This document shows positions 17,618-40,048 of a stretch of DNA of 64,000 bases, one piece after another; position 1 is the first letter of the stretch, and each line of letters starts with the position of its first letter. The notes beneath the pieces are model-generated. The model made no database searches. It was not told the origin of the DNA and saw nothing but the letters and a program-made list of their open reading frames with translations. This DNA comes from a virus, in the IMG/VR virus record IMGVR_UViG_3300033048_000096. One strand, 5' to 3'. The position numbers were made by a program, and so were the translations under genes.

Positions 17618-17875
17618 CTACTCCTTACAACTCGAATCATACTTGACTCGCTCATTCTCCTCTCTTATTATTCGCTTTATATACTTATCCGCAGACTCTA
17701 ATTCCGGGTAATAAAGAGCCACATAGTCTAATATATTCTTCTTCATAATTCCCTGCATACCGCCGCGACAACTATATGCACTTAATAAGTTGCTTAACTT
17801 ATTCTTAACCAACTTATTCTCAACCAACTTATTCTTAACCAACTTGCTTACCTCACTCACTAATACCTCCATCAT
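17618..17875 (-). CDS. Small hypothetical protein (IKRIIxE family) with 15-bp KLVxN repeats
   Basis: KLVKNKLVENKLVKNKLSN; ends DKYIKRIIREENER... Confidence 0.55.
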   Translation of the reverse strand: MMEVLVSEVSKLVKNKLVENKLVKNKLSNLLSAYSCRGGMQGIMKKNILDYVALYYPELESADKYIKRIIREENERVKYDSSCKE

Positions 17876-19160: not shown

Positions 19161-19181
19161 TTCGCTATTCCTTAATCTCAC

Positions 19182-19775
19182 TCATCTTTTTAACCATATC
19201 ACTTCTGTCTTTTTAATATTCTTCTGTAATGCTCTTTTCCCGCGCCCGAACCTCCGTATTGTTATGTTTACGCGATCATACTATTTGACGTAATTATTCC
19301 TAATATGCCCTGATTGATATTTTGCATGGCAATCCTTACAGGAGGTGTTGAAGCCGTCACCTCTTGTACTATCTTTTGAGAATTTATGAATAGACCTTTC
19401 CTCTTTGCACTTAGAACATTTTTTACTTGTTTTTATAATTTCCTTCGCATGATAAGCTGCTGCATTTTGCTTCCGCCTATTTATTCGGCAACTCCTGCAG
19501 GAACCCTCCCTACCGTCTCTAGTTAGCTTAGACCTATCAAAGTTAGAAAGGTGAAATGTTTCCTTGCAAGCCTTGCAGGCTTTATATGCTTTTATAACGT
19601 ACTTCGGTTTAGGATTTAAAGCATTTTTGGCATCTCTCTTTATCTTCCTAGCTCTGCTATAGCATACCTTACATTTATTACTGTATCCGTCTCTAGTAGC
19701 CTTGTTCACGCTGTAACTGTCGTATCCCAATAATTCTCCGCAGTCATTGCATTGTTTCTTTTTATCTTCACTCAT
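19182..19775 (-). pseudogene. Duplicated, internally deleted copy of the HNH gene (zinc modules only)
   Basis: Near-identical N-terminus offset by 615 bp; stop at 19281. Remnants GKEHYRRILKRQK and MVKKMS follow, so both nuclease domains are missing. Confidence 0.7.
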
Positions 19776-19930
19776 TTCGCTATTCCTTAATCTCACATTA
19801 ACATTACTCTTACCAGCCTCGATTAGCAGCAGATCCTCATGTTATGAGTATACCTCGTGCGCTAAAAAAAAACTATGCTATTTTTAAAATTATTTTAGGA
19901 AAAATGACGCGGTTGCCTCACCGGCAAGCA

Positions 19931-20060: not shown

Positions 20061-21083
20061 TTAGTCGGTTACGTAACCGCTAGCAACGCCTCTGGGGTTA
20101 ACTATGCCGATTCCCAATATCTCAGATACCACCCATCCTAGCTTCAGCTGCTTGGGTTCATCAGCGGGAAGAACTTCAATATCTTGCCTTATGGGCATAA
20201 CTCCTACGAATTCTGGATCCGCGGTAGCAAAGACTTGTTTAGGCGGCACGATTTTGGAGACGATAATATCTGCCCCAAAGAGGTGTCCATAGAGTCCAGT
20301 TTGAAGTAGTTCACGTTGGGTCACAGGATCGACCTGAGAGGCACCAGCGGCACCAGCGGATTCCCAGTTAAGCATATCAGTAAATTCACGAATATTCATG
20401 AAGTACTTAGCAGTAACATTATCCCAGCCATCGATTTCGCGCTTAAGTCTGAGTAATCCTTGCTTAGACAGTTCGGAAGTTACGATACCATTATCAAGAG
20501 TTTGCAGGCTATTTTCACCACCACGAGCGGCATCAGAAGCGAAATCTAGAGCAGCGAAGACATTGGAGTCTTCTTGCGCTTGAATTTCCTGACGAGCTTT
20601 CTGTTGAGCACGATCGATTACATTGAATCTACGTCTCTTAACTTCAGCGATACGCACAGTAGGATTAGAAACGATTTCGAATTCGGGAACAGAAACTCTA
20701 TCACCGAACACGCGTGATTCGGGTACAGAGCCGTTGCTAGAAATAACAACAGCGCTGACATCGATATCACGATCATATATAGCGAGAGCGCCTTGCGGGA
20801 GCGGATCAACTACGAGAGCTTTACGTCCGACACCTTGATAATCGAGGTTTCTTCGGATTGGGTTAGCCATAGCTTGTCCTAATGCAATTTTCCCTTCCAT
20901 GGTAGAAAGAGCTTGATGAATCATCTCGTCTCTTTGTGACTCATTGAATGAGGGTGATTGAGTTAGGCTAGAACTGGATGGGCTAAGTTCATCGATAATT
21001 GAGGCGTACTTAACAATTTTGCTTAGAGCATCCTTGACATTACCTGCACTTAGTTCACCTTGTGTATTAAATATATTAGACAT
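20061..21083 (-). CDS. Major capsid protein (HK97 fold)
   Basis: 340 aa; GQAMANPIRRNLDYQGVGRKALVVDPLPQG...PEFEIVSNPTV...RRFNVIDRAQQKARQEIQAQED...GWVVSEILGIGIVNPRGV. GGAG RBS, strong terminator, downstream of protease and portal. Confidence 0.85.
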   Translation of the reverse strand: MSNIFNTQGELSAGNVKDALSKIVKYASIIDELSPSSSSLTQSPSFNESQRDEMIHQALSTMEGKIALGQAMANPIRRNLDYQGVGRKALVVDPLPQGALAIYDRDIDVSAVVISSNGSVPESRVFGDRVSVPEFEIVSNPTVRIAEVKRRRFNVIDRAQQKARQEIQAQEDSNVFAALDFASDAARGGENSLQTLDNGIVTSELSKQGLLRLKREIDGWDNVTAKYFMNIREFTDMLNWESAGAAGASQVDPVTQRELLQTGLYGHLFGADIIVSKIVPPKQVFATADPEFVGVMPIRQDIEVLPADEPKQLKLGWVVSEILGIGIVNPRGVASGYVTD

Positions 21084-21824: not shown

Positions 21825-24443
21825 TTAAATAGACATCAGCTTTTGAAGAGCATTGTCTATAAGATCTGAGGCTTCGTTCAATCCTGAATCGTCAGCCTGG
21901 TCTCCTAACTTAACTAAGTTTTGTATAACCCAGGCGTGTCTTCCTCTGAAGTTACCTGAAGGCATGCTTAACGCAACGCCTTTGTTATGTCTATGTTGTT
22001 CGATTTGGTTTTCAACAACTCCTCCCTTCCCCATGGCATCAGCGATATCGATGGTTTTCGGATGAGCGGCTCCAATCAGATCGGCACCTGACTCGTTATG
22101 AACCTTATAAAGCTTAACGAAGTCAGCTTCAGATTTGCCAAGTTTATTATCATACATGCTTTTTAGCCCTGCATAATAAGATTTAGCGTATTGGTCCTCA
22201 AGACCTGCGACAGCATCTTGGAAGTATTGTTTTGAAATTTGATCTGCTTTCTTATGCATATCTTTATTAATCCCATTGTCATAAATAACACTTGATTCGT
22301 TAGAATTAGCAGGTTTCGTAAATTTTTGTGTAAAAAAGTTATTATTTTTTTGATTAGCATATTTTCCTAACTTCCCTCTATAAAACTTGACAGCATTTTT
22401 CCACCCGCTCATTCGTTTCCTTCCGACCTTATCTAGGTTTTGCCTTACAAATTTTCTAAGATCGGTTCTATTGAATATTTTATTGAGGTATAGATATTTT
22501 AGAGATCTAAGATAATCATTTTGATTATTCTGAGTTTTGGTAAGCCACCCGCCCCATTTATTCTCTGGGTCAGTAAAGGCTAAACCTTCTGGTGTGTTTA
22601 GTACTTTCTTGATGATTCTTGGGGCGGCGCTTCTCATTCCTCTGCTTAGGCGGCTTATATCTATATCTTCATTGTTGATGGAGACAATTTGAGGGTAGGG
22701 ATTATCTTTATTTGAGAGAGGCTCTTCTGTGTTTTGTTGGTTAGTGTTTTCTGCTGGTCTAGCTATTGGTTGATTTATGCCTCTGGATTCTTCTTTTTGG
22801 TTATCACTTGGTTCGTCTAACAGTTCGTCTGAGTATTGCATAGCTTGCATCATTATTTCTTTGAATTCGAGTGTATTTTCTGACAAAGCAGTTAGAGCAT
22901 TAATAGCTTCGTCAAATCCATTCCCTGCGTTTAGGTCTTGTTTTATATCTTCTTGTAGTTTTAGGTAGTTATCTACATAGGCTTCCATAGTTGTAAGATC
23001 AGTGAGAGCGTCAAAGAATTCTGCTTTGGATAGGTCTTCTTTCTTTAAGTTATCTAGTGAGTTGAATGATTTGAGTATAATTTCAATTAGTTCTGATGTT
23101 TGATTAAGGCCATTGGATCCTTCTTTGAAGTTAAGCTCCCTTAATTTTCTTATTGCATTATATTGGTTAGCTCTAAGTTGGTCTATTTCTTCTTCGGCTA
23201 ATTGGAAGTTACTTCTGAGCCAATTAATCCAAGCATAAACTGCTCCTTCGCTAACTAATCCTGCTATAGCTAAGAAGGTCAATCCTTTTATCAGTGTTGC
23301 CGAGGTTCCCAGTATTTTTGGGCTATTCTTAAGAAACAATTTCATAATAAATGCTGTAGCTGTGGACGGTCTTGATGGTTTTGAAGTTACTTTAGCGACT
23401 TCTTTGGCTGCTTTTGCTGCGCCTTCCTTTGATGCCTTGGCTGTTGCTTTAGATACGGTCTTAGCGGCCGCTGGGGAGGCTTTGGTTACAGCTTTGGTTG
23501 CTGACGCGGTATCCTTTGAGGCTTGTCGTGCGGCCGCTGAGGTTGCTTTTGCCGCGAAAGAGTTTTCTCCCGCCGCTTCTTTCGCTGCTTTAGCTAGCCC
23601 CTCTAGGTATCCAGCTTTTCTTGATTCATCTATAGCTTTTGCGAGTTCTTTCTTATGTTTAGCTGCAAGCTTTATTCCTTCTTCTGAGAGGTTTTTTATT
23701 GTACTTTCCAGTCCGCTTATATTGTCGGCACCTTTGGCTACATCATCTTTGAGTGTTTTTATTAGATTCCCTTTTTCATCTAGTTTCCCTCCGAGATCTA
23801 ATATTTTTTTCTCTAAGGTATCGACCATTGCTTCTGATTTTTTAAGAACAAAGATTGATTTTTTATATAATTCTTCTAGATTAAGTTTTTCATTTAGCAA
23901 TTCGCTTGTTTCTTTGGATGCTTTTAGTAGCGCATTTTTAGCTTTGGTAGCTTGCCCTGCCATTGAGGCTCTGCTTCTTTTTAGGTTAACCATCATCAAT
24001 GCTACTTCATCTACGCTTTTGTCACCTATTAGCTTCATCCCTTGAGCTATTTTGGAGATCACTGATATTTGCTCAGTCATTATGTTTGCTGCGTTAATTA
24101 ATTCTGGAGCAAGCTTAGATACCTTTGGTGCGTTTTTAACGCCTAGTTCGACAACTTCTTTTCCTGCATTCATTAGTTTATTAATTTCATTAATATTTTT
24201 GCCGGTAAGTTTGGATATTTCTTCTGGCGTTATCATGCCTGACTTAAGAGCTTTAATTATAAAATCATCCAGTGTCATTCCGGCAGCGCTTAGTAGTGTC
24301 TTGAGAGAACTTAGCCCTGATTCTTTAAGAGCCTTGATCATAGGCGCCATAACGTTAGCTTGTTTTTTGAGCATATATTTTTGCATTACTGCAGAATATT
24401 CGTCAAAGACTTCTGATGATGCTGTTTTTTGAATCCTAGACAT
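21825..24443 (-). CDS. Large Lys/Ala-rich coiled-coil protein, putative internal head (ejection) protein
   Basis: 872 aa with coiled coil, Ala/Lys-rich stretch and one hydrophobic segment; K-x-A motifs; C-terminal helix-G-helix motif. Confidence 0.5.
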   Translation of the reverse strand: MSRIQKTASSEVFDEYSAVMQKYMLKKQANVMAPMIKALKESGLSSLKTLLSAAGMTLDDFIIKALKSGMITPEEISKLTGKNINEINKLMNAGKEVVELGVKNAPKVSKLAPELINAANIMTEQISVISKIAQGMKLIGDKSVDEVALMMVNLKRSRASMAGQATKAKNALLKASKETSELLNEKLNLEELYKKSIFVLKKSEAMVDTLEKKILDLGGKLDEKGNLIKTLKDDVAKGADNISGLESTIKNLSEEGIKLAAKHKKELAKAIDESRKAGYLEGLAKAAKEAAGENSFAAKATSAAARQASKDTASATKAVTKASPAAAKTVSKATAKASKEGAAKAAKEVAKVTSKPSRPSTATAFIMKLFLKNSPKILGTSATLIKGLTFLAIAGLVSEGAVYAWINWLRSNFQLAEEEIDQLRANQYNAIRKLRELNFKEGSNGLNQTSELIEIILKSFNSLDNLKKEDLSKAEFFDALTDLTTMEAYVDNYLKLQEDIKQDLNAGNGFDEAINALTALSENTLEFKEIMMQAMQYSDELLDEPSDNQKEESRGINQPIARPAENTNQQNTEEPLSNKDNPYPQIVSINNEDIDISRLSRGMRSAAPRIIKKVLNTPEGLAFTDPENKWGGWLTKTQNNQNDYLRSLKYLYLNKIFNRTDLRKFVRQNLDKVGRKRMSGWKNAVKFYRGKLGKYANQKNNNFFTQKFTKPANSNESSVIYDNGINKDMHKKADQISKQYFQDAVAGLEDQYAKSYYAGLKSMYDNKLGKSEADFVKLYKVHNESGADLIGAAHPKTIDIADAMGKGGVVENQIEQHRHNKGVALSMPSGNFRGRHAWVIQNLVKLGDQADDSGLNEASDLIDNALQKLMSI

Positions 24444-24445
24444 AT

Positions 24446-24889
24446 TTAGTCCTCATCGTATATGATTGAATCTATTGCTCTCTCGATTTTATATGCAACT
24501 TTGTAGTTACCCGAGTGGGAAGCCTCTGCTGCCATTTGTCCTAATTCTTCTAACAGGGATGCTTTAGCTATAGATTCTTCTTCTTGTCTTTTAGCTAGCT
24601 CTTCTTTTTCTGTTGGTTCAATTTCATCTTCGGCTAAGTTTTCTGCCATATCCATGAAGCTTCCTAACTCCTTTGATGCCGTCTGGGTATCTTTGCTAAC
24701 TTGCTGAAGCTTTTGGGAGACCTGTCCAGCTTGCTGAGCTTCCACGAACTTTTCAGCTTTTTTGATTTGCATGATGGCCGCCTTTTCGATAAGAATTTTA
24801 AACTCATCCATTGTGGTTATCTGCGCCTCATTCCATTTTTCTTTGTAATCAACATATTGTCTAGCCATAATAAACCCCTTACCTATCAA
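24446..24889 (-). CDS. Putative internal head/scaffold-associated protein
   Basis: Helical; C-terminal LLEELGQMAAEASHSGNYKVAYKIERAI motif. Likely start MARQY at 24868. Confidence 0.5.
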   Translation of the reverse strand: MIGKGFIMARQYVDYKEKWNEAQITTMDEFKILIEKAAIMQIKKAEKFVEAQQAGQVSQKLQQVSKDTQTASKELGSFMDMAENLAEDEIEPTEKEELAKRQEEESIAKASLLEELGQMAAEASHSGNYKVAYKIERAIDSIIYDED

Positions 24890-25728: not shown

Positions 25729-26319
25729 TTATCCTTGCTTTTTGATATTTTGTATTGTGGTAGTGACTACGTCTCCCGTCATCCTATCACCTTTACTATA
25801 AGCATCAGCAGCCATTTTTTGAAGTCCTGAGACAACTCTTAATTTATTAGCAGCTTTTTTGAGGGCATTATTTTTTATGTTTTTAGCTGTAGACAATATC
25901 ATATCAGCCGCGAAATTTTTATCTTTAGCTCTCATTTCTCCTGCGATCTTTCCAAGTTCATGCAAAACATACTGTGCTCTTCTATCTACCAAGTATGACG
26001 TATCATTAGCCATTGATTCAGGCCTTTCTTGTTCGCAGCCATCTTCAGCCATATGCTCCTTGTTGCACTTGCCGCAAGGTCCATCACTAGCATAAGAAGA
26101 TACTTCTTTGATTTTCCTATCAAGTTGATCGCCATGAACATCCACCTCTTCGGCAGGGCTAACTAGAAAGTCCTCTGGACTTACTTGAGCAAGCTTTGAA
26201 GCGAGTTCCTCTTCTTTTTTCCTAACAAGAGATGCTTCCTTCTTAATGTTATTAAGTTTAGACATACTCTGATGGAAGCTTTTCGCAAGCTCTTCTGCTG
26301 CATATTTATTTCCAAACAT
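25729..26319 (-). CDS. Putative internal head protein with two helix-G-helix modules
   Basis: 196 aa; NKYA, KKEA, SKLA, KKAA, QKMA motifs; AGGAG RBS. Confidence 0.55.
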   Translation of the reverse strand: MFGNKYAAEELAKSFHQSMSKLNNIKKEASLVRKKEEELASKLAQVSPEDFLVSPAEEVDVHGDQLDRKIKEVSSYASDGPCGKCNKEHMAEDGCEQERPESMANDTSYLVDRRAQYVLHELGKIAGEMRAKDKNFAADMILSTAKNIKNNALKKAANKLRVVSGLQKMAADAYSKGDRMTGDVVTTTIQNIKKQG

Positions 26320-26329: not shown

Positions 26330-29300
26330 TTAATCCCACATCGAGGCTAGAGTCTTATGGTTAATGCCATCTCTATTCGTTGAGTTTTGTCCAGGCTCAT
26401 CAGTTACTCCAATATTAAGGCCGGTAACATCAGAGGCAATCTTTACTGACGTATGGCCAGTAAAGGATGCGACACTTCTCTTGAATGACTCAAAGGCTTT
26501 ATCATCAAAGTCCATCATATTATCGACTTGACGATTAAGTGCGGGTCGCGTACCTGCAAGCATACCTTTTCGTTGCATTTCCATAGCGACGTCATAAGCT
26601 CTACGAAGTCTTATCTTGTAAGCATCTCTTTCGTCTTCGGCCTTTTTGTAGAGGAAACTCTTATTTAGCTTTGACTGAACAGAACTTAGTTGATCAGCCG
26701 CGTCACTTTCTTTGTCATGAAGGCTCTCTTCGTGCTTATCAACCTCTTCTTCGGCAACCTCCTCAACTTCCTCTCTCTCCTTAGCGCTAAGATCATCTTC
26801 TGCGGAATTTTGAAGTCTTCCATCATCAGCGGCATGCTGTTGAACGGATGTTACTGATTTTTCTGCGACTTGACGTGACGGAGTGCTTGGATAGCTGTCG
26901 TACTGGTTAGCGTCTTGGTTACCATGGGAAGGTGCTGGCTTATGCTCACCACCGGTCGGGTTTTTATTGGCTATATCTTCGGCCATATCAGTGGTTACTC
27001 CGGATACTTGAGCATTCTCCTTCATTCCGATGCCGTCATGAGCCTCATTCTCCCGAGCCTCATCACCCTCAACCTCTTTATCGTCAGCATACGCTTCGGA
27101 AGCCTCATCACCATTCTCAAGATCCATACCGTTAGCTCTAAGTCTAGCTTGAGCTTTCTTTAATAGTTCTTGACGACGCTGCTTTCTCAGCTTCATTGCG
27201 CTAGCGATTAACTCACTCTCTCCTGAAACCGGAGCTTTAGCGGGAGTCACAATTGCTGCCGATTCCGTATACTCGGATACCTTAACCATGGATGTCGAAA
27301 TAGTGTTGGCCATGCTGACTAACGCTTTTGATTGACCTACGATCGTAGAGAAGTCACGAAGCGCTGCTCCAGAAAGACCCTTAAGATCGCGCCTCTGAGT
27401 AGAGGAAAGCTTTCCGTATCTTTCGTAGGTTTCGGCTATTAGCGCTAACTCATCCGCGGAATCTTTCGCTTCAGCCAGAACAATCTTTAGCTGACCAAAA
27501 ATCGTGCTAGAAAGCTTCATACTTTCTTCTGGCATATCCGGCATATCAACACCTTCGCCAACATTAATGGTAACATCACCGTCGGAATCTCCAAGATCAC
27601 CAAGTGCACTTCGGATTTGCTCGATCGTATCTTCCATCGCGAGTAATGAATCTTCAATTTCCGACTTGGGAGTGCCTTCGCTCTCAAGCTCTTCGCCTTC
27701 CACCGGAAGCTCTTCACCCATATCTAAGGGGGCCTCTTCCATTGGGGCGGGAGGAAGCTCTGCACCCAACTCCGCACCAGGCATTTCGGCGCCTAGGTCC
27801 TGAGCAGTTCTTGTTAGATTGTATCCAACAAATCCTATTCCATCTTCTCGGATAGCAGCAACTACTGCTTTCGCGTAGTCAGTGCTTTTTAAGAATTCCC
27901 AATTAGCCTCAAGATTTTTACCGAAAATGTTTTTAGCAGTAGTTGCAATAACTAACTTGCCACCAGAGTAAACTTCGAAGCCAGAAGCAGCCTTATTTAT
28001 GCTTCCATCTAGAGCGCGCTTTTGCTTAAACTTGGTAGAAAGCGAGGGACCTTTATACTTAGATCTTTTTTGAAGTTGCTTTATAGCGTCATCTCCAGGA
28101 AACATGCCCTTGTCACCGCCCATATTTCCGGTCTGCAGCATATGCTTGTCAGAATCCCAGTACTTATGATAATCTTCTGAGGTGAACGTAGAAGGCTCAA
28201 CGGAAGGGGCCGCTCCACCGAAGTAGTAAGCTCGCTTTTCAGTAGCGACATTCTTATCTTCAGCTCTAAGTTGCTTCTCTTTTATCTCTTTATCACCGGG
28301 AACCATCCCGTCGGGACCGCCAAGGTTAGTTGGGTTTGCATGCATTTGTTTATCATCCTGTTCGCGAATTTTCTTTTGTAAAGCACCCTCATCCTTGTAG
28401 GTACTCGGTTCTGATGCTGGAGCCGCTCCTCCCTGAGGATAGGCTAGACGGCGACGAAGCGCAGCCCTTTTACGTAATCTTGACTCATTCATAATGTCCT
28501 CCGTTATGGAACTTAATTTAATTTTATCATTTATCTTCTCTTGTGAAAAAGCATAATTTTCAGGCCCTACACCGTCTCCCTTAAATGAATCAGGATTTGG
28601 CTCACTAACACCTGCGACCAGACCGGAAGACCCGGTGCCAGTATAATCACTAACGTCACCATCATCTTTCATAGTAATGGTATCACCACCAGAAGCGTTT
28701 TCGCCACTAGTAAATACTTCGCCGAGTGGATCCGAAAGATCATCACCAGCAATTAACTCGTCGCTAAAGAAGCTTCTGAATAACTCAGGAGCTTGCTCCA
28801 TAGTCTTGCCGGTAGCTGAAGCGAAATCTGCCATAGCTTTAGCAAGTTCATTTCTGTCTTGAGCATTCTTTTTACTGGCAGATTTTGTGAATCCACCGGT
28901 AGACAAATATCCCTTAACAATTCTCTCTCTCTGCTCTAAAGAGCAGCTTCCCGCACTACAAACAGAATTAAGCAATAAATCTAAGTTATTAACCTCTTTG
29001 GCACTAAGCTTTTTGAGATCCAAATCTACTCCGTAAGAACTCAACTCTTCTTTGTGCTTATTAATCGAAGCGAAGCATCTCAACAAGATCGAGCCAGGTT
29101 CTGCCGGATGAACTACTAGGCTATATTCAATTGGACTCAGACCTACGTTAATCTCTCCCCAAGCTTGTCTCGTCATTATATGACTACAATATTCTTTAGG
29201 AGTAGTTGCCGGCTTTCCACATTCAGTACAAATTGATGTAGCTACCGCAGTTCCCATCGAACCATAGCGAACTACGCCAGTAGATACTTTTCTTGCTAAA

Positions 29301-29821
29301 TCCGGATAATTAACTTTATCCAAAGCGCAAAGCCCAACGACTTGCTTTAACCTCTCATCATAATGAGTGTCTAGAATTATTCCCCTTACACCATCTACAG
29401 TATCAGACTTGTGATCAACACATAGGGGTCTTCCAATCCAATCCCTTGCGGCCTTCTTTAACTCAGACTCAGGAAAAATATCTCCATTATTATTTTTATG
29501 AGCTTTTACGTTGCCGTGCCACTTCCACTTTTCATCAAAATATCCCCAAGCATTATCTTTACCAACTTTCTTTAGATTTCCCTCTCCGTCGATTAACGAA
29601 GACTCTGCAGCCTTTAGAAAGATAATGCTGAAGTATAGAAAGTCGTCAGATTTCGGAGCAATAGTCTTTATTGTTTGTGCAAACTTATTTAATCTATTTA
29701 ATATATCTTCGCTAGCTAATTTGGTGTCAAACTCTGATGGACTTATTTCGCTTACCACGCTCATCTCTGTATGTCCAAATTTAACAATTTGCTTACTAAT
29801 CATACTTGCCCTCGATTTCAA
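26330..29821 (-). CDS. Prohead (maturation) protease fused to scaffold
   Basis: N-terminal NNNGDIFPESEL...GRPLCVDH...GIILD...SMGTAV..SICTECG...YCSHI...EYSLVVHPAEP protease-like domain; long acidic/coiled-coil C-terminus; between portal and MCP. Likely start MISKQ at 29803. Confidence 0.75.
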   Translation of the reverse strand: MKSRASMISKQIVKFGHTEMSVVSEISPSEFDTKLASEDILNRLNKFAQTIKTIAPKSDDFLYFSIIFLKAAESSLIDGEGNLKKVGKDNAWGYFDEKWKWHGNVKAHKNNNGDIFPESELKKAARDWIGRPLCVDHKSDTVDGVRGIILDTHYDERLKQVVGLCALDKVNYPDLARKVSTGVVRYGSMGTAVATSICTECGKPATTPKEYCSHIMTRQAWGEINVGLSPIEYSLVVHPAEPGSILLRCFASINKHKEELSSYGVDLDLKKLSAKEVNNLDLLLNSVCSAGSCSLEQRERIVKGYLSTGGFTKSASKKNAQDRNELAKAMADFASATGKTMEQAPELFRSFFSDELIAGDDLSDPLGEVFTSGENASGGDTITMKDDGDVSDYTGTGSSGLVAGVSEPNPDSFKGDGVGPENYAFSQEKINDKIKLSSITEDIMNESRLRKRAALRRRLAYPQGGAAPASEPSTYKDEGALQKKIREQDDKQMHANPTNLGGPDGMVPGDKEIKEKQLRAEDKNVATEKRAYYFGGAAPSVEPSTFTSEDYHKYWDSDKHMLQTGNMGGDKGMFPGDDAIKQLQKRSKYKGPSLSTKFKQKRALDGSINKAASGFEVYSGGKLVIATTAKNIFGKNLEANWEFLKSTDYAKAVVAAIREDGIGFVGYNLTRTAQDLGAEMPGAELGAELPPAPMEEAPLDMGEELPVEGEELESEGTPKSEIEDSLLAMEDTIEQIRSALGDLGDSDGDVTINVGEGVDMPDMPEESMKLSSTIFGQLKIVLAEAKDSADELALIAETYERYGKLSSTQRRDLKGLSGAALRDFSTIVGQSKALVSMANTISTSMVKVSEYTESAAIVTPAKAPVSGESELIASAMKLRKQRRQELLKKAQARLRANGMDLENGDEASEAYADDKEVEGDEARENEAHDGIGMKENAQVSGVTTDMAEDIANKNPTGGEHKPAPSHGNQDANQYDSYPSTPSRQVAEKSVTSVQQHAADDGRLQNSAEDDLSAKEREEVEEVAEEEVDKHEESLHDKESDAADQLSSVQSKLNKSFLYKKAEDERDAYKIRLRRAYDVAMEMQRKGMLAGTRPALNRQVDNMMDFDDKAFESFKRSVASFTGHTSVKIASDVTGLNIGVTDEPGQNSTNRDGINHKTLASMWD

Positions 29822-29865: not shown

Positions 29866-31713
29866 TTAATCAGATAATATAAGTAATCCTAAAATATCTG
29901 AATTTATATATTCCATGCCCCGATCTATCGAAGAGTGTAAGTCTTCAATAACTCTCTCGTACTCATCAACCTTTTCTGACAAGACCTTATGAAAGTCGCC
30001 TGACTCAATTTCATCAATAAGATCGAATATAGCTTCTATTGAATCCGAAGCTGTTTTGGCCGAATTAGCTAGCCCATCTATAATCTCTGATGTTGTTGAG
30101 ATATCTTTAATTTCATTAAATATCTTTATGGCGTCACGTATCTTAATTAAATAATTTCTAACTATCCTCGTGTTACTCCTGACAGACTGGTTGTACTGAC
30201 CCTTACTTCTTGTTACCGCGCCCGAATCGGCTTTTATCTTATCATATTCCACTAGATTCTTTTTCATATTATCCAGGGATGTATCAGACAATTCTTTGGC
30301 CGCATCTAATAACTTATATACTCTTTTCGCGCGGCTTTTTACAGAGTCCGGGACCGGAGTGCCTGCTCTTTTAAGAAGGCTCTTGTCACTAAATACTTTT
30401 ATATCTACATTTCCGCACGCAATCTTTATGGCACCAACAACATCATAAGCGTCAGAATCTTTTGAAACTTTAATTACTTCCATATTAATCGGCTCCCCAA
30501 ACTGAAGACTTAGTCTGGCGCAAACCATTGACTTTAGATATTCGGGATTAGGTGATCTTGTTACCACGATCACTCTTGAGTTAGATTTCGAGGCAGCTTT
30601 TCTGACCTCATTAAATATCTTTGTTGCGTTGTTAATTATTTTTTTATCATTAAGGAAATATGAAAAACTCTTATTCAGGCTAGCTAGTATGGATTCATTA
30701 CTTTCTATACCATTTGACATTATCTCATATAGATGAACATCTCTGTATATTTCATTGCCGTCCGATGTCTTATCTATAGATACGGCATGGCCATCTATTC
30801 TTATGAATGGAATATCTTCATCAGAACATTCTGAAGTCTTATATACTCTAACAGTAGGCGAATCCTCTATCATTCCGTCAAAATCAAATGCATATACACT
30901 TCTGTTATCAGAGTGTGTGAACTTACTTACCAGATCCGATATTAAGTGATCCTCGCTAGCTACTTTTTCAAACTTGTCATTTACCGACAATATGGGGTAT
31001 CCCTTCCAGTTATGAAACCCCGGCCTAAAAGTATTTGAATACTGAACAATTATATCCCTCCTGATACCAAGTTTGCTTGATATTTTATTAAGAGCACTTA
31101 CACTAGATAATTCAGAATCTTTTCCATGTGATATATCAACACTATGTCCGACGCTTATTCCTAGCCTATCAGAAAGGCCTCCAGCGATCTCTAATACATT
31201 TTTAACATTAGCACAGCCAAATGTTCCTAAAGTTCCAGGCTTTATATCTTTATATATTTTTTTAATCTTATCGTCACCATCGATGAACACTATATCTATA
31301 GGGAAAGATACCGTCCCCATATGGTAAATGACGTCTTCAGGATTGTTATAAGGGAAAATTAACCCGGCCGTATCGGCTAACCCAGAATAAGGCTGGAGGC
31401 CCGATACCTTGTCTTTAAATGTATTAGCTATGTTGCATGCGAAGTTTGCCAATATACCTTCGTCATCCGACACCTCCACACTTGCTTTCTCGCTACCATT
31501 ATCGTCAGCCAGAGAAACATCTTCGACGGGACTTATCATTCCGTTTTCGTACGTCACTGAACTGGCCTGATCATCTAATACAGACTTGTCAGGAACTAAA
31601 CCGTCTGACGGTTGATGACTCTCTTCTATTCTGTCTTTGTAGCTTCCATCAGGAGAGCCTGAGCCCATCTCATGCTCAGTGCTACCGATCCACGGCCATG
31701 CGATTTTTTTCAT
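29866..31713 (-). CDS. DUF192 + HAD-like + coiled-coil fusion protein
   Basis: IANT..DKVSGL...GLIFPY...YHMGTVSFPIDIVFID...VLEIAGG (DUF192); VYAFDFDG...VIVVTRS (HAD motifs I/II). Start MKKIAW at 31713. Confidence 0.65.
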   Translation of the reverse strand: MKKIAWPWIGSTEHEMGSGSPDGSYKDRIEESHQPSDGLVPDKSVLDDQASSVTYENGMISPVEDVSLADDNGSEKASVEVSDDEGILANFACNIANTFKDKVSGLQPYSGLADTAGLIFPYNNPEDVIYHMGTVSFPIDIVFIDGDDKIKKIYKDIKPGTLGTFGCANVKNVLEIAGGLSDRLGISVGHSVDISHGKDSELSSVSALNKISSKLGIRRDIIVQYSNTFRPGFHNWKGYPILSVNDKFEKVASEDHLISDLVSKFTHSDNRSVYAFDFDGMIEDSPTVRVYKTSECSDEDIPFIRIDGHAVSIDKTSDGNEIYRDVHLYEIMSNGIESNESILASLNKSFSYFLNDKKIINNATKIFNEVRKAASKSNSRVIVVTRSPNPEYLKSMVCARLSLQFGEPINMEVIKVSKDSDAYDVVGAIKIACGNVDIKVFSDKSLLKRAGTPVPDSVKSRAKRVYKLLDAAKELSDTSLDNMKKNLVEYDKIKADSGAVTRSKGQYNQSVRSNTRIVRNYLIKIRDAIKIFNEIKDISTTSEIIDGLANSAKTASDSIEAIFDLIDEIESGDFHKVLSEKVDEYERVIEDLHSSIDRGMEYINSDILGLLILSD

Positions 31714-31714
31714 A

Positions 31715-32002
31715 TTATAACCCCTTATTAAGCTCGTCAATAACCGTTTTTATAAAATAAGGATCTCGACCATTTAAAATATTCTTAACCAAACTTATAC
31801 TGGTCCCTATATAAGAGCCTCCGGGCTGATTCTTTGAGGACATATCGGGTATGTTTAATTCGAGAAATTTTCTTTTCAAATTAGGATAAGCACTTTGCTG
31901 AGAGTCAATCGACATTCTACCAATCATAACATCTATTATGTCACGTATTTGATTTGCTACAAATTTAGGATCATGTGGAAATCCACGAGCTTCTTTTTTC
32001 AT
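31715..32002 (-). CDS. Hypothetical head-module protein
   Basis: 95 aa beginning MKKEA. Confidence 0.6.
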   Translation of the reverse strand: MKKEARGFPHDPKFVANQIRDIIDVMIGRMSIDSQQSAYPNLKRKFLELNIPDMSSKNQPGGSYIGTSISLVKNILNGRDPYFIKTVIDELNKGL

Positions 32003-32006: not shown

Positions 32007-32531
32007 TTACTCGGAAAGATACTGATCAGCTCTTGTTAGAGTTTTCTTGTAGGCTGATTCTTTTGATTTATTTAAGTTACCATTTTTCATGTGCTCAAGG
32101 ACCAATGTTCTGCTATATATTTTCGCTAGCTTCTTCAAAACTTCATTCGTGTTAACTATCTCCGCATTATTAACTTTTATCATTAATTGATTAAACAAAT
32201 CGGTATAGTTGATCTTATTTGATTGGGCAAATTTATTAATTAAAAAATCAGCAAAACCTGCGAAAGCTTCCTCGCCAGAATTATCCATCTCGTCCCCTAG
32301 CGTAACCAAAAGATCCATGATATTTTTATCTAATGTCATCTCACCACTATCAAACTCGTAAGTATCATAAATGTCCGGATCTGTATGATCGAAGTCCGAA
32401 GTCATTTCTGTCAAACCAAATCCTCTACCTCCTGATTCCGTCGCGGTCTCTTTATCGACTAAATCAGTGGAAGGACCAGTTACCTGAGCCTCCTCTCCAG
32501 GCTTAGCTACACTATAAGAAGCTTTGTTCAC
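32007..32531 (-). CDS. Hypothetical head-module protein with helix-G-helix module
   Basis: IMDLLVTLGDEMDNSGEEAFAGFADFLINKFA. Confidence 0.6.
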   Translation of the reverse strand: MNKASYSVAKPGEEAQVTGPSTDLVDKETATESGGRGFGLTEMTSDFDHTDPDIYDTYEFDSGEMTLDKNIMDLLVTLGDEMDNSGEEAFAGFADFLINKFAQSNKINYTDLFNQLMIKVNNAEIVNTNEVLKKLAKIYSRTLVLEHMKNGNLNKSKESAYKKTLTRADQYLSE

Positions 32532-32799: not shown

Positions 32800-34578
32800 T
32801 TAACCGGGTGGTCCGCCTTCCGGTAGTTCAGGAGGCATGTCACCGCCTAAGTCGCCCCCTCCTAAGCCTCCTGGACCTCCTGGGTCCATAGGCGGACCAC
32901 TACCGCCTGACATTCCTGGAAGCTCTAAGCCCATGTCATCTCCGGATTCACTATCCATACCCGGTAATCCCCCTGAACCACTGTCAGGTGGTTCAGGTAT
33001 TATTCCGTCAGCATCTAGATTCTCCAACTCTCTTAATCTCATTGATTGAAGTGACTCCAATTCCTTAGTTCTAATTACCTCATCAATAGCTTCTTCTCGT
33101 AGTCTACGCTTTTCTTCTTCGTAACTCAAGTCTAAGCTTCTATATAACGTCTGCAATGAAACTTGCTTATTGGATACGAAATTACTTACTCCCTGAACGT
33201 AATCATTCATGTCATATAAATTCATGTGATTGAAGTCAATCGTCGGAACTAATAATACTTTTTGACCATCTTTAAATTCGAAGAAATCTTGCATTTCGCA
33301 TATTGGTGCAAATATTTTTTGCTCTAACCACTTCTTTATCATATTTCTAAATATATCATACCTCTGCCTGAGAACCTCTAAACCTATTGACGAACTGGCG
33401 TACGAAGCAGATTCCTGATCCATTAAGGCTTTTGGAACCATCAAGCCTGTGTAAAGATTGTTCATGATTAACTCTATATCAGAAGATATATCAAGCACAC
33501 CTCCCGAATAACCAACCCTCTCTATGGTGACTCCATCATGAGTAACGATCTTGAAATCCTTGTCATACTGCGACTCTTCCAAAACGCTTCTCATTTCTTC
33601 TATGTCAGATTGAGTCGGCCTATAATCATTTCCGTTTCCTAATTTAACTAAAGTAAGGGGATTGATCATGCTGTCAGCTTGGGCAAACTTAGACTCTCTA
33701 AGCTTATCATAAAGCATTAAATCTTTATATATAGATACAATTACAGAAGTTCCTCTAACGTCATACGGAGAACTCAATAATTTCAAGTGTGATACATTTA
33801 TGTTATCCAAAGGTATTGACTGACCTTTCTTTACGGCATCAATTATATGCCTGGGTAATCTTCTCTTAAGCTTTAGATCTGAAGGTGAATTAGAATTAAC
33901 CAACCTACCTAGAGCGGCATCTGGCTTTAATGATATTATAGTCTGGTCACCTATTGCCGCTTTCTTAACATGAACAAAGTCTGGATTAAGAATTGTTATT
34001 CGTTTCCAGGAACCAGTTTCTTTATCTAACTCTGCGTAAGGAAACACCTCACCCATTTTCCAGAACTCCAACGAAGCTCCGTAAACGACTGAATACAGAT
34101 CAAGCTCTTCTGCCATCTGAAGGAAATATTCTTGAACTTCTTTTACGGGATGACTTATATTTATTTTGCTTATCGGGAATGATGCATGCAAGTTTATAGC
34201 ATTTCTTACGATCGGATGTGTATCGTAAAATATTCTGTTCCACGCATTCATCGTGACACGGTCTCTTGGGAGGTTTAAATTCGCTAACTGGAATAATGGA
34301 GAATATACTTCCGGACCCATCATATCAGATAAACCCTTCGTTGTAGGTAACGTTGAAGCTCCGCCCATAGCTCTCTTCGTCATCAAACCCCTATAAGCCG
34401 AACTATGAGATACAACCGAATGTCTGCTGCCACCAACTCGCTCTTCATCATTAACCCTTTCCGTTTCCGCATCTTGAATTTGGGCTCTTCTTAATCCTGA
34501 TAACTTCTTGAAACCATCTTTGGATAACGAATCGCTAATATTACTGATGATTTTACTCTCTTTTCTTCTGTTTTTCAC
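32800..34578 (-). CDS. Portal protein
   Basis: FYDTHPIVRNAINLHA...FWKMGEVFPY...ITILNPDFV...YDVRGTSVI...NPLTLVKLG...GLMVPKALM; Gly/Pro-rich tail; directly downstream of terminase. Confidence 0.85.
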   Translation of the reverse strand: MKNRRKESKIISNISDSLSKDGFKKLSGLRRAQIQDAETERVNDEERVGGSRHSVVSHSSAYRGLMTKRAMGGASTLPTTKGLSDMMGPEVYSPLFQLANLNLPRDRVTMNAWNRIFYDTHPIVRNAINLHASFPISKINISHPVKEVQEYFLQMAEELDLYSVVYGASLEFWKMGEVFPYAELDKETGSWKRITILNPDFVHVKKAAIGDQTIISLKPDAALGRLVNSNSPSDLKLKRRLPRHIIDAVKKGQSIPLDNINVSHLKLLSSPYDVRGTSVIVSIYKDLMLYDKLRESKFAQADSMINPLTLVKLGNGNDYRPTQSDIEEMRSVLEESQYDKDFKIVTHDGVTIERVGYSGGVLDISSDIELIMNNLYTGLMVPKALMDQESASYASSSIGLEVLRQRYDIFRNMIKKWLEQKIFAPICEMQDFFEFKDGQKVLLVPTIDFNHMNLYDMNDYVQGVSNFVSNKQVSLQTLYRSLDLSYEEEKRRLREEAIDEVIRTKELESLQSMRLRELENLDADGIIPEPPDSGSGGLPGMDSESGDDMGLELPGMSGGSGPPMDPGGPGGLGGGDLGGDMPPELPEGGPPG

Positions 34579-34585: not shown

Positions 34586-36367
34586 TCACATTTTAAGTCT
34601 AGGTGCGTAAGCTAATGAAGGCCTTGGCATTGTAGATTTCGTCTTCTTGCCAGGCTTAAGGGTAAACCTTTCTGTTGAGTCAAATTTCCAAGCCATATAT
34701 GCATACATTAAAGCCATTAACCCATCATTAGGTGTCGTGCCCTTAACGTATGTTTTTACTTGTTGACCCCCACCCTTTATGCGAATAGATGTACCCATAG
34801 AGGTGCAGTGATCAATTAACCATTCCACATGCTCATAGCTCTTCCACGGAAATCTTATTTTACCCTTTCTTATTTTATCAAACAATTCCTCAATCATAAG
34901 ATCTTTATTGTACGAAACCATTAGCTCATCTTCTCTGTATTTTAAAGGGTTTAGTAAAGCTCCGCTTCCCTGTGCCCCAAGTAACCTATCACCCATTCCG
35001 GCCTGTATATCTCTAACAACATCCTGACCGAAGAAGAAATCTGATACCCCCTGTTTTATACCGAATCTCTTATACATTTCCAAGACTGTTTCTTTTTTAT
35101 ATCCAAAACTTCTCTCTCTAAGCTTATGTGCGTGCTCAACCAGTAGAGTTCCGTCTCCTGCGTCCGAAAGAATAACGACGCACGAATATGACTGTCCTCG
35201 GCCATCTTTCTCAACCTTATCCCCCCAGTCAACACCTAAATATGTGTTCTTATCTCGGGAACTTATACGCCGCGAAAAACTCCTGTCAGGATCTTTACAG
35301 TACATCTCGATTTGAGTTCTTGTTAATGGCATGCCTACACCGGCATAAAACTCGCCAACAACTTCGTTATTCCAAACTCGCTCAGATTGATTTGGATTAT
35401 TTTCCGGCATTAGATCATTTATGTATTCCCTATTTAGATTCGGAATATAAAGCTGATTAATATGAAAACCAACATACTTGCAGTCATCTGGATTTCTGGA
35501 AGGAACCCACTTACCTAGCTCAATGGCATCAACCTTCTTGCTTATAGCCCCACAATGAGGACACCTAAAATCATATCCCTTAATCCATATATCTTTCCAA
35601 CCATCATCCTCGGGTTGATAAAATGGGTACGTACCTTTACACCCTACACATCCTAAATGATAATACCTCTGATCAGACATGTTCCAGGTTGTCTCAAACC
35701 AACTTCCTTTCTCCTTGGGCGTCCCGAAATATACCTGCACACCTTTTCCGTTTTGACCATACTTTGCGGCAGTCAATGTCTTTGTGGTGTTACCTATCCC
35801 AATTGCTGTCATATCCTGACACTCATCAAAGAAGGATATGTCAATCGTCATACCACGCGTCCTATCACCTTCGGCACCTATGCTTTCGATCCATAGGGTT
35901 CCTGTCTTGAACTGTTTCATCGTCAGGTTATCAACGGCGGTTGGCCCCACTAACTTATTCTTATTTATAAAGTCATCCTTTGCGCTTCTTATTAAACCTT
36001 CCAACTTGTCTTGCGTAAATCTCTTAACCATAGCTAATGCTGGGAACAAATGAGCTACGCGTATCGGGGGGTTGGTAAATAAACCGCTATTAGTGAAGTA
36101 TAGGTCTAACGCTCCAGCCATCATTGTGGCGCCCACCTGCCGGCCTTTCTTTATCACAACTGGCTTACCGTTTTTTCTAGAAGCTTGCAGAGCTATATAC
36201 CTATAGACATCCGCCATGAATTTCCACCCATTCCCTATAACACTGAAAGGCTCACCATCGAGAGTTAAATTGTTCTCGATAAAATGAGCCGGATCGTAGT
36301 CCAAAAAACTGGTCTTTACTTTGCTAAATAACTTTCTTTCTTCATTCTTTAAATTTTTCTGAGCCAT
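34586..36367 (-). CDS. terL: Terminase large subunit (lambda gpA-like, with zinc ribbon)
   Basis: Walker A VIKKGRQVGAT, Walker B FFDECQD, FGTP motif, CVGC...CPHC, nuclease YLGVDWG. Confidence 0.9.
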   Translation of the reverse strand: MAQKNLKNEERKLFSKVKTSFLDYDPAHFIENNLTLDGEPFSVIGNGWKFMADVYRYIALQASRKNGKPVVIKKGRQVGATMMAGALDLYFTNSGLFTNPPIRVAHLFPALAMVKRFTQDKLEGLIRSAKDDFINKNKLVGPTAVDNLTMKQFKTGTLWIESIGAEGDRTRGMTIDISFFDECQDMTAIGIGNTTKTLTAAKYGQNGKGVQVYFGTPKEKGSWFETTWNMSDQRYYHLGCVGCKGTYPFYQPEDDGWKDIWIKGYDFRCPHCGAISKKVDAIELGKWVPSRNPDDCKYVGFHINQLYIPNLNREYINDLMPENNPNQSERVWNNEVVGEFYAGVGMPLTRTQIEMYCKDPDRSFSRRISSRDKNTYLGVDWGDKVEKDGRGQSYSCVVILSDAGDGTLLVEHAHKLRERSFGYKKETVLEMYKRFGIKQGVSDFFFGQDVVRDIQAGMGDRLLGAQGSGALLNPLKYREDELMVSYNKDLMIEELFDKIRKGKIRFPWKSYEHVEWLIDHCTSMGTSIRIKGGGQQVKTYVKGTTPNDGLMALMYAYMAWKFDSTERFTLKPGKKTKSTMPRPSLAYAPRLKM

Positions 36368-37020: not shown

Positions 37021-38064
37021 TTATGCAAAGTAATTCTTCATAAAATCAACTCCCTCACCATCACCGTCATTATCAGATTCGCCTATAGAACCTCTATCCT
37101 TGAAAATAGGCTGGCCCATATCCATAAGAATTTGCAAAATAGCCAACTCTTCTCTGTCAGTAAATTTATACTTCTTCTTTAGGAACTCATAAACATCCTC
37201 AAAAGGTTTTCCGGCGGATACTACCGAGTTAATTATCATGCCTGTTATTGCTCGCTCCCATGGAGTCATTATGAGCTGAATCTGCGCAGTACCTGCTTCC
37301 TTCTTTATGCTAACAGAACCGGTTCCGCCCTTCTTGTGCCTTTTGTTAAGCTTTTTAATATGTTCTTTTAAGGTAACCATATCTCTTATCATATTGACTC
37401 TTATACCTTCTAGGGTCGGTAGATCCAATGCATCATTCTTGTCACTTCTTAATGCTTCGGATATCTCCTTATTTCTGTGAGTCAAGAATAAAATAGCTCT
37501 CTCGCATCCCAATGTAGAGCTTCCGTCATGGGCGGGAATTCCGTCGGGATATGCCGTCTTAATATACTCCATGAAATGGGAGGGGTCTCTGTCGTTAATC
37601 CAGTCAGTTACTTTATCCGCAACCTCTTCTTTAACTTCACTATCCTTATTGTCATCAACATAGTCCGTAGCACCAGGTAATCTAAATGAACTTGGAGAAT
37701 CTATTGTCTCATCGCTCTCGGTGCCTGGAAGACCAAAACTTCCGCTCATATCAAAAGTCTCATCAGACTCCTTATTTTTTTCGCCAGACTCTCCCTCGAT
37801 AAATTCAATCATATCATCTAAGCTGCCTTTATCACCAACATCATCTAACGGCAATATTAAAACCTCAGGCTCAGAGCAGCTCTCTTCATCTTCATCTTCA
37901 TCTTCGAACATATGCTCATCGAAGGTTATGATCAAAGGGCTGTCACCACCTGGGAACCCATGATCTTTGTCAGAGATAGAACCTAAATTAAATTCCTGCG
38001 CAGTCTTGCTCTGCTCAATATACTCTGTAACAATAACTTTTGACATCACTCTTCTCCTATCCAT
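37021..38064 (-). CDS. Hypothetical acidic head-module protein
   Basis: 347 aa (likely start MSKVIV at 38046, AGGAG RBS); SKTA, IKKEA motifs. Confidence 0.6.
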   Translation of the reverse strand: MDRRRVMSKVIVTEYIEQSKTAQEFNLGSISDKDHGFPGGDSPLIITFDEHMFEDEDEDEESCSEPEVLILPLDDVGDKGSLDDMIEFIEGESGEKNKESDETFDMSGSFGLPGTESDETIDSPSSFRLPGATDYVDDNKDSEVKEEVADKVTDWINDRDPSHFMEYIKTAYPDGIPAHDGSSTLGCERAILFLTHRNKEISEALRSDKNDALDLPTLEGIRVNMIRDMVTLKEHIKKLNKRHKKGGTGSVSIKKEAGTAQIQLIMTPWERAITGMIINSVVSAGKPFEDVYEFLKKKYKFTDREELAILQILMDMGQPIFKDRGSIGESDNDGDGEGVDFMKNYFA

Positions 38065-38338
38065 AAAAACTTGTAAGTAACCCGGTCCATGTTCTGCTTA
38101 TATTATCATCTACGTATTCTGACTCGTTAAACTGCCCTTGTAATGGCTTGGCAGAGTCACCAACATACACCCTGGGGTACAAAGGACTACCACTTAAAGG
38201 AATATTAACAGAAGATTCTTCGTCATCAATCTCATACTCTTCGGGGTCATATTCGCCCTCCTCTTCGTACGCAATGATTTCGTCATCAAGATAATTTTTA
38301 AAATGTTTTTTGTTCATAATATTATTCATAAATATCAA
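38057..38338 (-). CDS. Small acidic hypothetical protein
   Basis: 93 aa within the operon. Confidence 0.5.
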   Translation of the reverse strand: MIFMNNIMNKKHFKNYLDDEIIAYEEEGEYDPEEYEIDDEESSVNIPLSGSPLYPRVYVGDSAKPLQGQFNESEYVDDNISRTWTGLLTSFYG

Positions 38339-38341: not shown

Positions 38342-40048
38342 CTATTGTTGGTAGCCGCTTAACTTAATTAACCTTTCTTTTCTATTATTAATATTAGCAA
38401 GTTTATTTTTCCTCCCAAGAATAGATACGTGATAATGAGGACCGGCCATTTTAGTCTCGTCAACAATCTTTATGTTAAAATCATTATCTATACGCATCGC
38501 ACTTAACACCTCTTTTATACCGGAAGTTAACGAAAAATCCAAGGCTTGTCCTGGGTCCGTAATATGATGGCTTCCTACAGTTCTGCTTCTTATAACCTTA
38601 GCACCTAACTCTTGAGCATCTTTTCCTACCCCATAACTCTCAAATATATCTGACATCTTGCTTCCATAACTTTTTCCGTATAGCCCTTCCAGATACTCTC
38701 TTCCGCCATTCATTCCGCCATTATCATTCCAGTTTCTTCCCATCAAGGCGGATTGGTTTCTTATAGATCTCCAACCACTAGTTATTATTGGGGTCTGAAC
38801 ACCCATCTCCTTAGCTTTATTACCTATAGCCTCAATGAAATCTTTTACATCTTGGGTTACATTATTAATATTAACCCCGGGTTTAGTATAAACATTTCCT
38901 CTGGATACAGAAGTGTACCCAGAGGCTCGCTCCGGTACCCTGTTGGAACTTAAATTTCTATCCGGTATAATGAGATTATAAAGCTTATTTCTTCTCTCTC
39001 TAAAGCCTTCCGTTAATGATGGCGGAATTAAAGAACTAACTCCCCAGTTAGAACCGCTTAGCTCATTTTTCATTATACTAAGAGTCTCTTCTGGGCTTTT
39101 ATGAATATTATTCCACTCGTTTTTATATTTATTAGAATACCAAGATGCCCAACTATTATACGACGGACTAGATTGTTCTGAGATATTATTGTAATTAGCC
39201 TTCCACCACTCTTCTAGTTTTTTATATTCAGGGCCCTGCGATACATACGAGTTCCAATTATTAGCCAAGAAAGCAAACTTGTTATCTAATGCAGGGCTGC
39301 CGAGGTAATCAACCAAAATCTTCTTCTCTATCAATATATCTTTAAAATATCCTGACAAGGGAACGTTCTTAAATAAGCCCAGATCTTTAAGCAATTTGAG
39401 CGTTAGATCTTGATTTGCCTTAAGGGCTTTTCCAATTTTAACAGCTATATACTTGTCTTTTACGTTGCCCGAACTAAATAATGATGGATTGCTGATTGTG
39501 AACTCTTTAATCTCAGGAGCGATATCAAAATCATATCGTGCTGCAAGATTTATCGCGCGGTAAACTCTACGAGGATCATCGGTTAACGTAATTTCCGGAG
39601 GAACCGGGGTACGAATCAATTTACTTCTCATATCCTCAAAGCCTTGGCCAGTGGGATCCGTTATCTCCCCAGAAATTAAATCCTGATGCAAAGCATTTAT
39701 CGTGAAGTCTCTACTGAATGCTTCCTCAAAGCCCTCGTTAGCCCCATTTAAATGTTTCACTACCCCGTCAGATACGAAATTGCTTGAAAAGTCTAAATCA
39801 AATTCTTCAGAAAATACTGTAACATGACCGTCGTCAGAAAGCTCGAAAGTAACATTTAATTCTTCGGCCAATAAAATTCCCAGTCTTAAAACCTCAGATG
39901 AATTAGTTGTTAGATCTATATCTGTAGTCTTTACGTTAGGGATATCCATAAATATATCTCTGGGTAACCCACCAACAACAAAAGTCTTGTCAATAAGGTA
40001 TTTATTAGCTATGCTATCAATAAACTTAAGCGTATCTTTTAAACTCAT
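38342..40048 (-). CDS. CCA-adding enzyme/poly(A) polymerase-family nucleotidyltransferase fused to peptidase M15-like domain
   Basis: VVGGLPRD...DIDLTT...RDFTINAL...DPTGQG...DDPRRVYRAI (class II NTase). C-terminal ITSGWRS...SHH...ALDF...HYHVS (M15/LAS metallopeptidase). Confidence 0.85.
   Translation of the reverse strand: MSLKDTLKFIDSIANKYLIDKTFVVGGLPRDIFMDIPNVKTTDIDLTTNSSEVLRLGILLAEELNVTFELSDDGHVTVFSEEFDLDFSSNFVSDGVVKHLNGANEGFEEAFSRDFTINALHQDLISGEITDPTGQGFEDMRSKLIRTPVPPEITLTDDPRRVYRAINLAARYDFDIAPEIKEFTISNPSLFSSGNVKDKYIAVKIGKALKANQDLTLKLLKDLGLFKNVPLSGYFKDILIEKKILVDYLGSPALDNKFAFLANNWNSYVSQGPEYKKLEEWWKANYNNISEQSSPSYNSWASWYSNKYKNEWNNIHKSPEETLSIMKNELSGSNWGVSSLIPPSLTEGFRERRNKLYNLIIPDRNLSSNRVPERASGYTSVSRGNVYTKPGVNINNVTQDVKDFIEAIGNKAKEMGVQTPIITSGWRSIRNQSALMGRNWNDNGGMNGGREYLEGLYGKSYGSKMSDIFESYGVGKDAQELGAKVIRSRTVGSHHITDPGQALDFSLTSGIKEVLSAMRIDNDFNIKIVDETKMAGPHYHVSILGRKNKLANINNRKERLIKLSGYQQ

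Follow-up and report, generated by a model that had tools for sequence, protein, structure and literature searches.

A head-operon fusion protein of a phage-G-related jumbo phage joins a tail-less class II nucleotidyltransferase to a predicted cell-wall peptidase

A jumbo phage of the phage G kinship encodes in its head operon a 568-residue protein, P0001, in which a tail-less class II nucleotidyltransferase is followed by a disordered K-x-A junction, a Trp-rich domain, a zinc peptidase of the M15/Hedgehog fold, and a C-terminal helix. On our best reading, in which we have about even confidence, the gene arose when two neighboring head-operon genes fused: a core nucleotidyltransferase gene and an inserted Trp-domain/M15-fold peptidase cassette that retained its K-x-A leader. 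For its function, we give roughly an even chance to a head polyprotein that would be cut by the prohead protease, with the peptidase opening the wall locally and the nucleotidyltransferase adding C to tRNA ends early in infection. Features are listed in Table 1 by their positions in the window, the whole 64,000-nucleotide stretch of viral DNA analyzed here.

Results

The fused gene and its place in the head operon

The 568-residue product comes from one gene, as had been read from the sequence: its open frame recurs on five contigs (one of them the Logan assembly of SRR5988111; the longest 238,913 bp), and 34 further fused homologs drawn from four sources align end to end with P0001 at 35–68% identity. 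The recurrence of the same protein and the alignment of all 35 full-length sequences exclude a frameshift artifact. No relatives were found in viral_contigs. An AlphaFold2 model of P0001 built with the 35-sequence alignment had a mean pLDDT of 85.7 and a pTM of 0.47, a combination that is the mark of predicted domains that are well folded and joined loosely; only residues 252–260 and 333–367 were of low confidence. P0001 shows no signal or membrane segment.

The fused gene lies upstream of the genes for the large terminase, portal, prohead protease, and major capsid protein. The surrounding gene order was unchanged in nearly all long loci mapped, and in the mapped loci the nucleotidyltransferase gene never leaves the head operon. 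Next to the fused gene, a short acidic ORF (38057..38338 of the window) corresponds to the final part of a Cys-rich gene that most relatives have, in longer form, at this place; the ORF is fused to the nucleotidyltransferase in P0040. Elsewhere in the window, 16468..17574 is the sole long plus-strand ORF, and tandem endonuclease VII/HNH-like ORFs (17853..19181 and 19281..19796) are similar near their N-termini. Among related loci, the terminase of L003 (12974-15829) contains an intein, and much longer terminase or portal genes in L012, L018, and L028 (>900 residues) probably contain inteins too. One 383-kb contig with this jumbo-phage head operon (L091; JAIXLO010000160.1) was binned in a Chitinophagales MAG, reflecting either misbinning or a host link.

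Table 1. Positions in the window of the fused gene, its parts, and genes of the head operon (aa, residues of P0001)
Feature	Coordinates	Strand	Remarks
Major capsid protein	20061..21083	-	51% identical to phage G gp27
Prohead protease/scaffold protein, putative cutter; 16 K-x-A sites	26330..29821	-	protease domain 33% identical to phage G gp19
Portal	32800..34578	-	
Large terminase, without K-x-A	34586..36367	-	
Whole fused ORF, P0001, 568 aa	38342..40048	-	one open frame
Second, weaker K/R-x-A site (38396..38404) and basic C-terminal helix	38345..38410	-	in 28/35 fused homologs
M15/Hedgehog-DD-peptidase-fold Zn peptidase, aa 381-546 (R427, H495, D504, E531, H538, H540)	38411..38908	-	
Variable low-confidence linker, aa 333-367, without K-x-A	38948..39052	-	
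Trp-rich helical domain, aa 262-331, no known family	39056..39265	-	accompanies wall-hydrolase modules, not stand-alone nucleotidyltransferase
Disordered junction, aa 252-260, with K257-x-A259 (39272..39280); candidate prohead-protease site, probable leader of former peptidase gene	39269..39295	-	
Tail-less class II nucleotidyltransferase, aa 1-250 (head, neck, part of body)	39299..40048	-	D43/D45/D86, S-R-D motif B, D-D-x-x-R template motif

A tail-less, CC-adding-like nucleotidyltransferase

The sequence-only reading had placed an intact class II nucleotidyltransferase at about residues 1–250, and several results agree. This region matched PF01743 (E 8e-12) and phrog_2244 (E 4e-21), structure comparison gave a VIA Z of 21 to 4wby, and the class II marks are present (motif A G-G-x-x-R-D, D-x-D, a third carboxylate, and the head/neck fold). 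Asp43, Asp45, Asp86, the Arg113-Asp114 pair of motif B, and the template Arg161 were invariant among 28 diverse members, and the template Asp158 is retained in most members of the family. Motif B reads S-R-D versus R-R-D in the reference, with the central Arg-Asp kept and the first residue different; likewise, the template motif reads D-D-P-R-R versus E-D-x-x-R, with the Asp/Arg kept and the first residue different. Members of one subclade (P0044-P0070; also L005:10001-11794 and L091:5001-5723) no longer have the template Asp in motif D, which is of the N-K-N-R type, and this loss could alter base choice; most of this subclade has a long acidic tail after a K-x-A site.

The class II assignment thus stood, but the accompanying label of CCA-adding/poly(A) polymerase proved too loose. 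The structural match to class II enzymes stops at residues 253–258, which leaves the phage enzyme with no tail domain, and stand-alone members are only ~250–290 residues long; the P0001 family does not have the body and tail domains of a full CCA-adding enzyme of ~400 residues. A basic/acidic motif before the flexible loop is required for A addition, and its absence is a criterion for CC-adding enzymes (PMC7014341). This motif (R-x-E/D after the third carboxylate) occurred in 0/110 family members. The flexible-loop spacing is mostly 25–40 residues (27 in P0001), compared to 16 in loop-less bacterial enzymes, and the segment is predicted to be helical with no loop consensus; among cellular S-R-D enzymes, a set chosen by the S-R-D pattern, 46 of the 56 that could be measured were loop-less. 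The β-turn signature of bacterial poly(A) polymerases, h-h-G-R/K-R/K-F between motifs A and B, was also found in 0/110 members. P0001 is therefore a class II nucleotidyltransferase, yet lacks what marks a full CCA-adding enzyme or a poly(A) polymerase. With no tail, no basic/acidic motif, and no poly(A)-polymerase signature, the enzyme looks CC-adding-like, and addition of A by it appears unlikely.

A Trp-rich domain precedes a predicted wall peptidase

What had been described as an Asn/Trp-rich linker is instead a folded helical domain with invariant Trp residues (residues 262–331; pLDDT 80–89); the loose linker actually follows it, at 333–367. Matches of this domain in the Atlas were all weak. 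We considered whether the domain might be a displaced CCA tail and rejected this, its match to CCA tails having a probability of 0.2%. The Trp-rich domain also heads stand-alone peptidases, and P0255 contains two Trp-domain cassettes, one preceding an M15 domain and the other a phage tail lysozyme that scored higher than its Pfam cut-off. These cassettes are bounded by K-x-A/S, which argues that modules have been swapped at such sites.

The M15-like domain proposed for the C-terminal part was supported by fold, profile, and metal-site comparisons. Arg427, Asp504, Glu531, His538, and His540 are present in 35/35 homologs and His495 in 34/35. The predicted structure matched Hedgehog (Z 8.0; rmsd 2.7, 97 residues aligned), Ply500 (Z 6.9; rmsd 4.0, 119 residues aligned), and T5 endolysin, VanXY, and MepA (Z 6.8), all of these Z values being middling. 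The peptidase profile matched VanY structures at E 1e-6, and 14 of 18 members matched VanY; against Pfam VanY, P0001 itself scored E 0.012, under the curated cut-off, and its homolog P0041 exceeded the M15_3 cut-off (29.5 versus 23.2 bits). By sequence and predicted fold, zinc ligands and conserved Arg included, residues 381–546 are best placed in the M15/Hedgehog-DD-peptidase superfamily. Among 139 peptidase relatives, 26 carry PG_binding_1 and 4 carry phage tail lysozyme, partners that indirectly suggest that the peptidase would act on muropeptide.

Near the C-terminus lies KNKLA, noted in the sequence-only reading and taken here as a candidate second site; its Lys is not conserved, the site often reads R-x-A, and it is sometimes absent, making it the weaker of the two. 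P0040 retains the C-terminal helix despite having lost the peptidase. In P0038 and P0039, a domain with a His..Gly-Cys motif replaces M15 after the Trp-rich domain and is followed by an RNA-repair HAD phosphatase (PF10307). By eye, P0037, P0038, and P0042 have additional domains resembling wall hydrolases, for which family searches gave no firm match.

The junction resembles a site for the prohead protease

The sequence DNKFA occupies residues 255–259 (39272..39286), where it had been reported, within the first low-confidence segment. Several observations bear on its role. First, K-x-A occurs at the junction in 30/35 homologs and K-x-A/S in 35/35, the segment being otherwise variable, and the frequency of K-x-A here is ~44 times that within the nucleotidyltransferase domain; these homologs share ancestry and are not independent counts. 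Second, across loci, six putative head proteins, the protease among them, had K-x-A at 2.4–3.3 times the expected frequency, with the reversed A-x-K control at 0.8–1.1; observed/expected ratios were 0.4 for terminase, 0.2 for a sigma-like gene, 0.9 for RecA, and 1.2 for GroEL, and a non-structural protein, primase, was an exception at 2.0. Third, the same excess is seen in phage G, where gp19 has eight K-x-A sequences versus 2.4 expected, gp21 has seven versus 2.8, and terminase has none versus 2.1. In this cultured phage (L006), head-region proteins with K-x-A excess are gp4, gp5, gp7, gp11, gp14, gp19, and gp21, and no excess is seen in the terminase or capsid protein. Finally, the operon contains both a candidate site motif common to putative head proteins and a prohead protease, presumably cognate, which resembles phage G gp19 and Myrna gp97.

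The idea of a cleaved precursor is thus supported by a junction that is conserved, disordered, of a type enriched in putative head proteins, and found at the borders of swappable modules, and by the presence of a prohead protease in the operon; on these comparisons the junction K-x-A/S is likely to be a head-protease cut site. Our search of the literature found no published demonstration of K-x-A cleavage. Cutting after Ala259 would yield products of 28.9 kDa (pI 4.8) and 32.9–34.9 kDa (pI ~9.3).

Two further features of this operon involve K-x-A. The ORF at 29866..31740 of the window contains DUF192 and a HAD-like D-x-D-G segment with K-x-A sites between them, and 23 of its 25 homologs begin with K-x-A/S. 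A helical hairpin motif beside K-x-A is common to the putative head proteins encoded at 21825..24443, 24446..24889, 25729..26319, and 32007..32531 and also heads some peptidase relatives (P0154); it is possibly a targeting signal.

Fused, split, and stand-alone forms

C-terminal domains vary among homologs, with the peptidase separate, lost, or swapped for other modules. At most metagenome loci, the nucleotidyltransferase is encoded alone at the same position. At seven loci, the Trp-domain peptidase is the next, separate gene, overlapping by 4–8 bases in six of them, so that fusion would be a small step. Short K-x-A/S leaders begin 10 of 18 stand-alone Trp-domain peptidases. Because the peptidase can be a separate next gene, often with such a leader of its own, the junction in P0001 is probably a leader that the peptidase had before fusion and has kept since. 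Among all peptidase representatives, K-x-A/S in the first 14 residues was not enriched (33/141 versus 56/235), and an L-x-E leader was present in 29/141 versus 2/235, a lead only, as this pattern was set after seeing the data and the control came from another clade.

The proposal that an RNA enzyme is delivered at infection emerged weaker than first stated. Of 110 non-redundant phage enzymes, 57 stand alone without a leader, and K-x-A in stand-alone enzymes is 1.2 times expectation. Leaderless stand-alone enzymes and a junction that resembles a peptidase leader weaken the step from a fused protein to purposeful delivery of the RNA enzyme. On the tree, forms lacking the peptidase are interspersed with fused and split ones. 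Multiple origins of fusion were considered and not supported, as a single origin was compatible with the tree test (p-AU 0.34); repeated selection for fusion within the clade therefore lacks support.

Candidate tRNA substrates and a second phage family

No tRNA genes were found in the window or, in 13 related loci, within 10 kb. A related 383-kb phage contig encodes one such nucleotidyltransferase and at least nine tRNA genes, eight of nine without encoded CCA, which makes these tRNAs a plausible substrate. On that contig (L173-L176; G001:C75), eight of nine tRNA genes end in the discriminator plus a single C, and one encodes CCA.

A second large-phage family, on contigs of up to 470 kb, encodes full-length CCA enzymes; among its 73 leader-bearing members, 68 have L/I/V/F-x-E directly ahead of the catalytic domain (9.4 expected). 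The shared ancestry of these members makes the counts non-independent, but both enzyme subfamily and leader type differ from those of the P0001 clade. Members of this L-x-E family (P0266-P0384; L089:8001-10049) are often in polyproteins and are located among tRNA genes; one, P0336, has a K-x-A/S-type leader in place of L-x-E. Named housekeeping enzymes on one second-family contig begin without such a leader, as judged by eye. In P0177, a full-length canonical CCA enzyme is joined in reverse order to a peptidase of the same family as that of P0001, and L-x-E lies where the two meet. In T4, Alt and other head cargo are distinguished by leaders that end in L/I-x-E (PMC5694885). On these sequence comparisons, the L-x-E-leader family and the P0177 fusion would strengthen again the case for purposeful delivery.

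Discussion

From the gene and motif comparisons, the two fused enzymes probably enter the capsid as one protein and are separated inside it. We infer cleavage, packaging, ejection, and both substrates as follows: the precursor would be built into the prohead; the phage protease would cut after Ala259 to leave the nucleotidyltransferase and a 33–35 kDa Trp-domain peptidase; both products would exit the head at infection; and the peptidase would then cut stem peptides of peptidoglycan locally as the nucleotidyltransferase, being CC-adding-like, adds C residues to unfinished or trimmed tRNA 3′ ends. In a broader form that we advance tentatively, a widespread phage-G-related jumbo clade would pack a minimal CC-adding-like enzyme into the head together with a wall peptidase, as a polyprotein cut at K-x-A, and inject this enzyme so that it works on tRNA ends from the opening minutes of infection, and a second, unrelated large-phage family would have converged on this strategy with full CCA enzymes behind L-x-E leaders.

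The fusion might instead be passive, with the peptidase cassette as the sole true head cargo, the nucleotidyltransferase acting late in the cytoplasm to finish phage tRNAs, and packaged copies as hitch-hikers. Stand-alone enzymes without leaders, the short overlap of split genes, the peptidases' own K-x-A/S leaders, and the CCA-less tRNA genes of a related phage would all fit. This explanation is nevertheless rather unlikely in our judgment, given that the gene stays in the head operon with tRNA genes absent nearby, that CCA enzymes of another phage family bear a head-type leader of their own, and that P0040 kept the C-terminal helix after losing the peptidase. We consider it improbable that the nucleotidyltransferase is an effector adding non-CCA tails to host tRNA or other RNA, thereby shutting down or redirecting translation: retention of Asp158 and Arg161 in most members predicts normal C/A selection, and some relatives are fused to an RNA-repair phosphatase, set against the missing tail domain and basic/acidic motif, the helix replacing the flexible loop, the loss of the template Asp in one subclade, and the toxicity in E. 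coli of gp22 of fHe-Kpn01, a short class II-like phage protein (PMC7291057).

That Ply500 and T5 endolysin share the peptidase fold, and that relatives carry PG_binding_1, would also fit an uncut protein whose peptidase serves in lysis and is set free as infection ends. The head-operon position, the conserved junction motif, the lack of a signal or membrane segment, and the absence of the peptidase at this locus in most relatives and from one whole 383-kb contig (possibly incomplete) make such an endolysin highly improbable. Two genes are indeed present at seven related loci, but the chance that sequencing or assembly error joined them here is negligible in view of the five contigs and the four sources of the other fused homologs.

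Phage CCA-type enzymes have so far been viewed as cytoplasmic tRNA-repair helpers. If they are virion cargo, control of tRNA ends would set in with injection and precede the reading of any phage gene, a point of relevance to the survival of large phages under tRNA-targeting defenses. Two testable subjects come out of the present analysis. One is a conserved nucleotidyltransferase family that lacks the tail and has a fixed place in the head operons of many uncultured jumbo phages; the other is a putative K-x-A/S rule for the prohead protease, which can be checked in a cultured relative, phage G.

The phage enzyme resembles class II tRNA nucleotidyltransferases (CCA-adding 1miv and 3h37, Aquifex 4wby, and S. 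pombe cca1/cca2) in its head and neck fold (Z 15–21 over ~228 residues), three carboxylates, the R-D of motif B, and the template D..R; unlike them, it ends at ~250 residues without a tail, is encoded among head genes, and is fused to a wall peptidase. The loop-less B. halodurans enzyme, which the PMC7014341 criterion marks as CC-adding, likewise has S-R-D in motif B and lacks R-x-E; the phage loop, by contrast, is not deleted (27 residues compared to 16) and is predicted to form a helix. Phage CCA-adding enzymes (PHROG 2244/24229) belong to the same superfamily, occur in large phages, and have a proposed role in tRNA-end repair (jumbo-phage RNA repair; PMC7824862); the best matches to the P0001 enzyme in deposited phage records are partial and only ~27–36% identical, and our search of the literature on these enzymes found no virion targeting or peptidase fusion.

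Fold, S-G-x-R motif, and a His..Asp..His-x-His metal site relate the peptidase to M15/Hedgehog-DD-peptidases (VanY/VanXY, Ply500, T5 endolysin, MepA, and the Streptomyces DD-peptidase 1lbu), from which it differs as a separate family of 357 representatives, without a match in deposited phage records, that combines a Trp-rich partner domain with a long insert of helices. Leaders of this kind allow T4 to package Alt and internal proteins, trim them, and eject them (PMC5694885). By analogy, P0001 may work like processed head cargo of the T4 or phiKZ type: internal proteins and Alt of T4 and ejection proteins of phiKZ/SPN3US (PMC5694885, PMC10052503) are likewise cargo with leaders that a protease can remove, and their prohead proteases are encoded with the head genes. 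T4/phiKZ-type proteases cut after Glu, in contrast to the K-x-A/S site proposed here, and P0001 differs further from such cargo in being a two-enzyme polyprotein.
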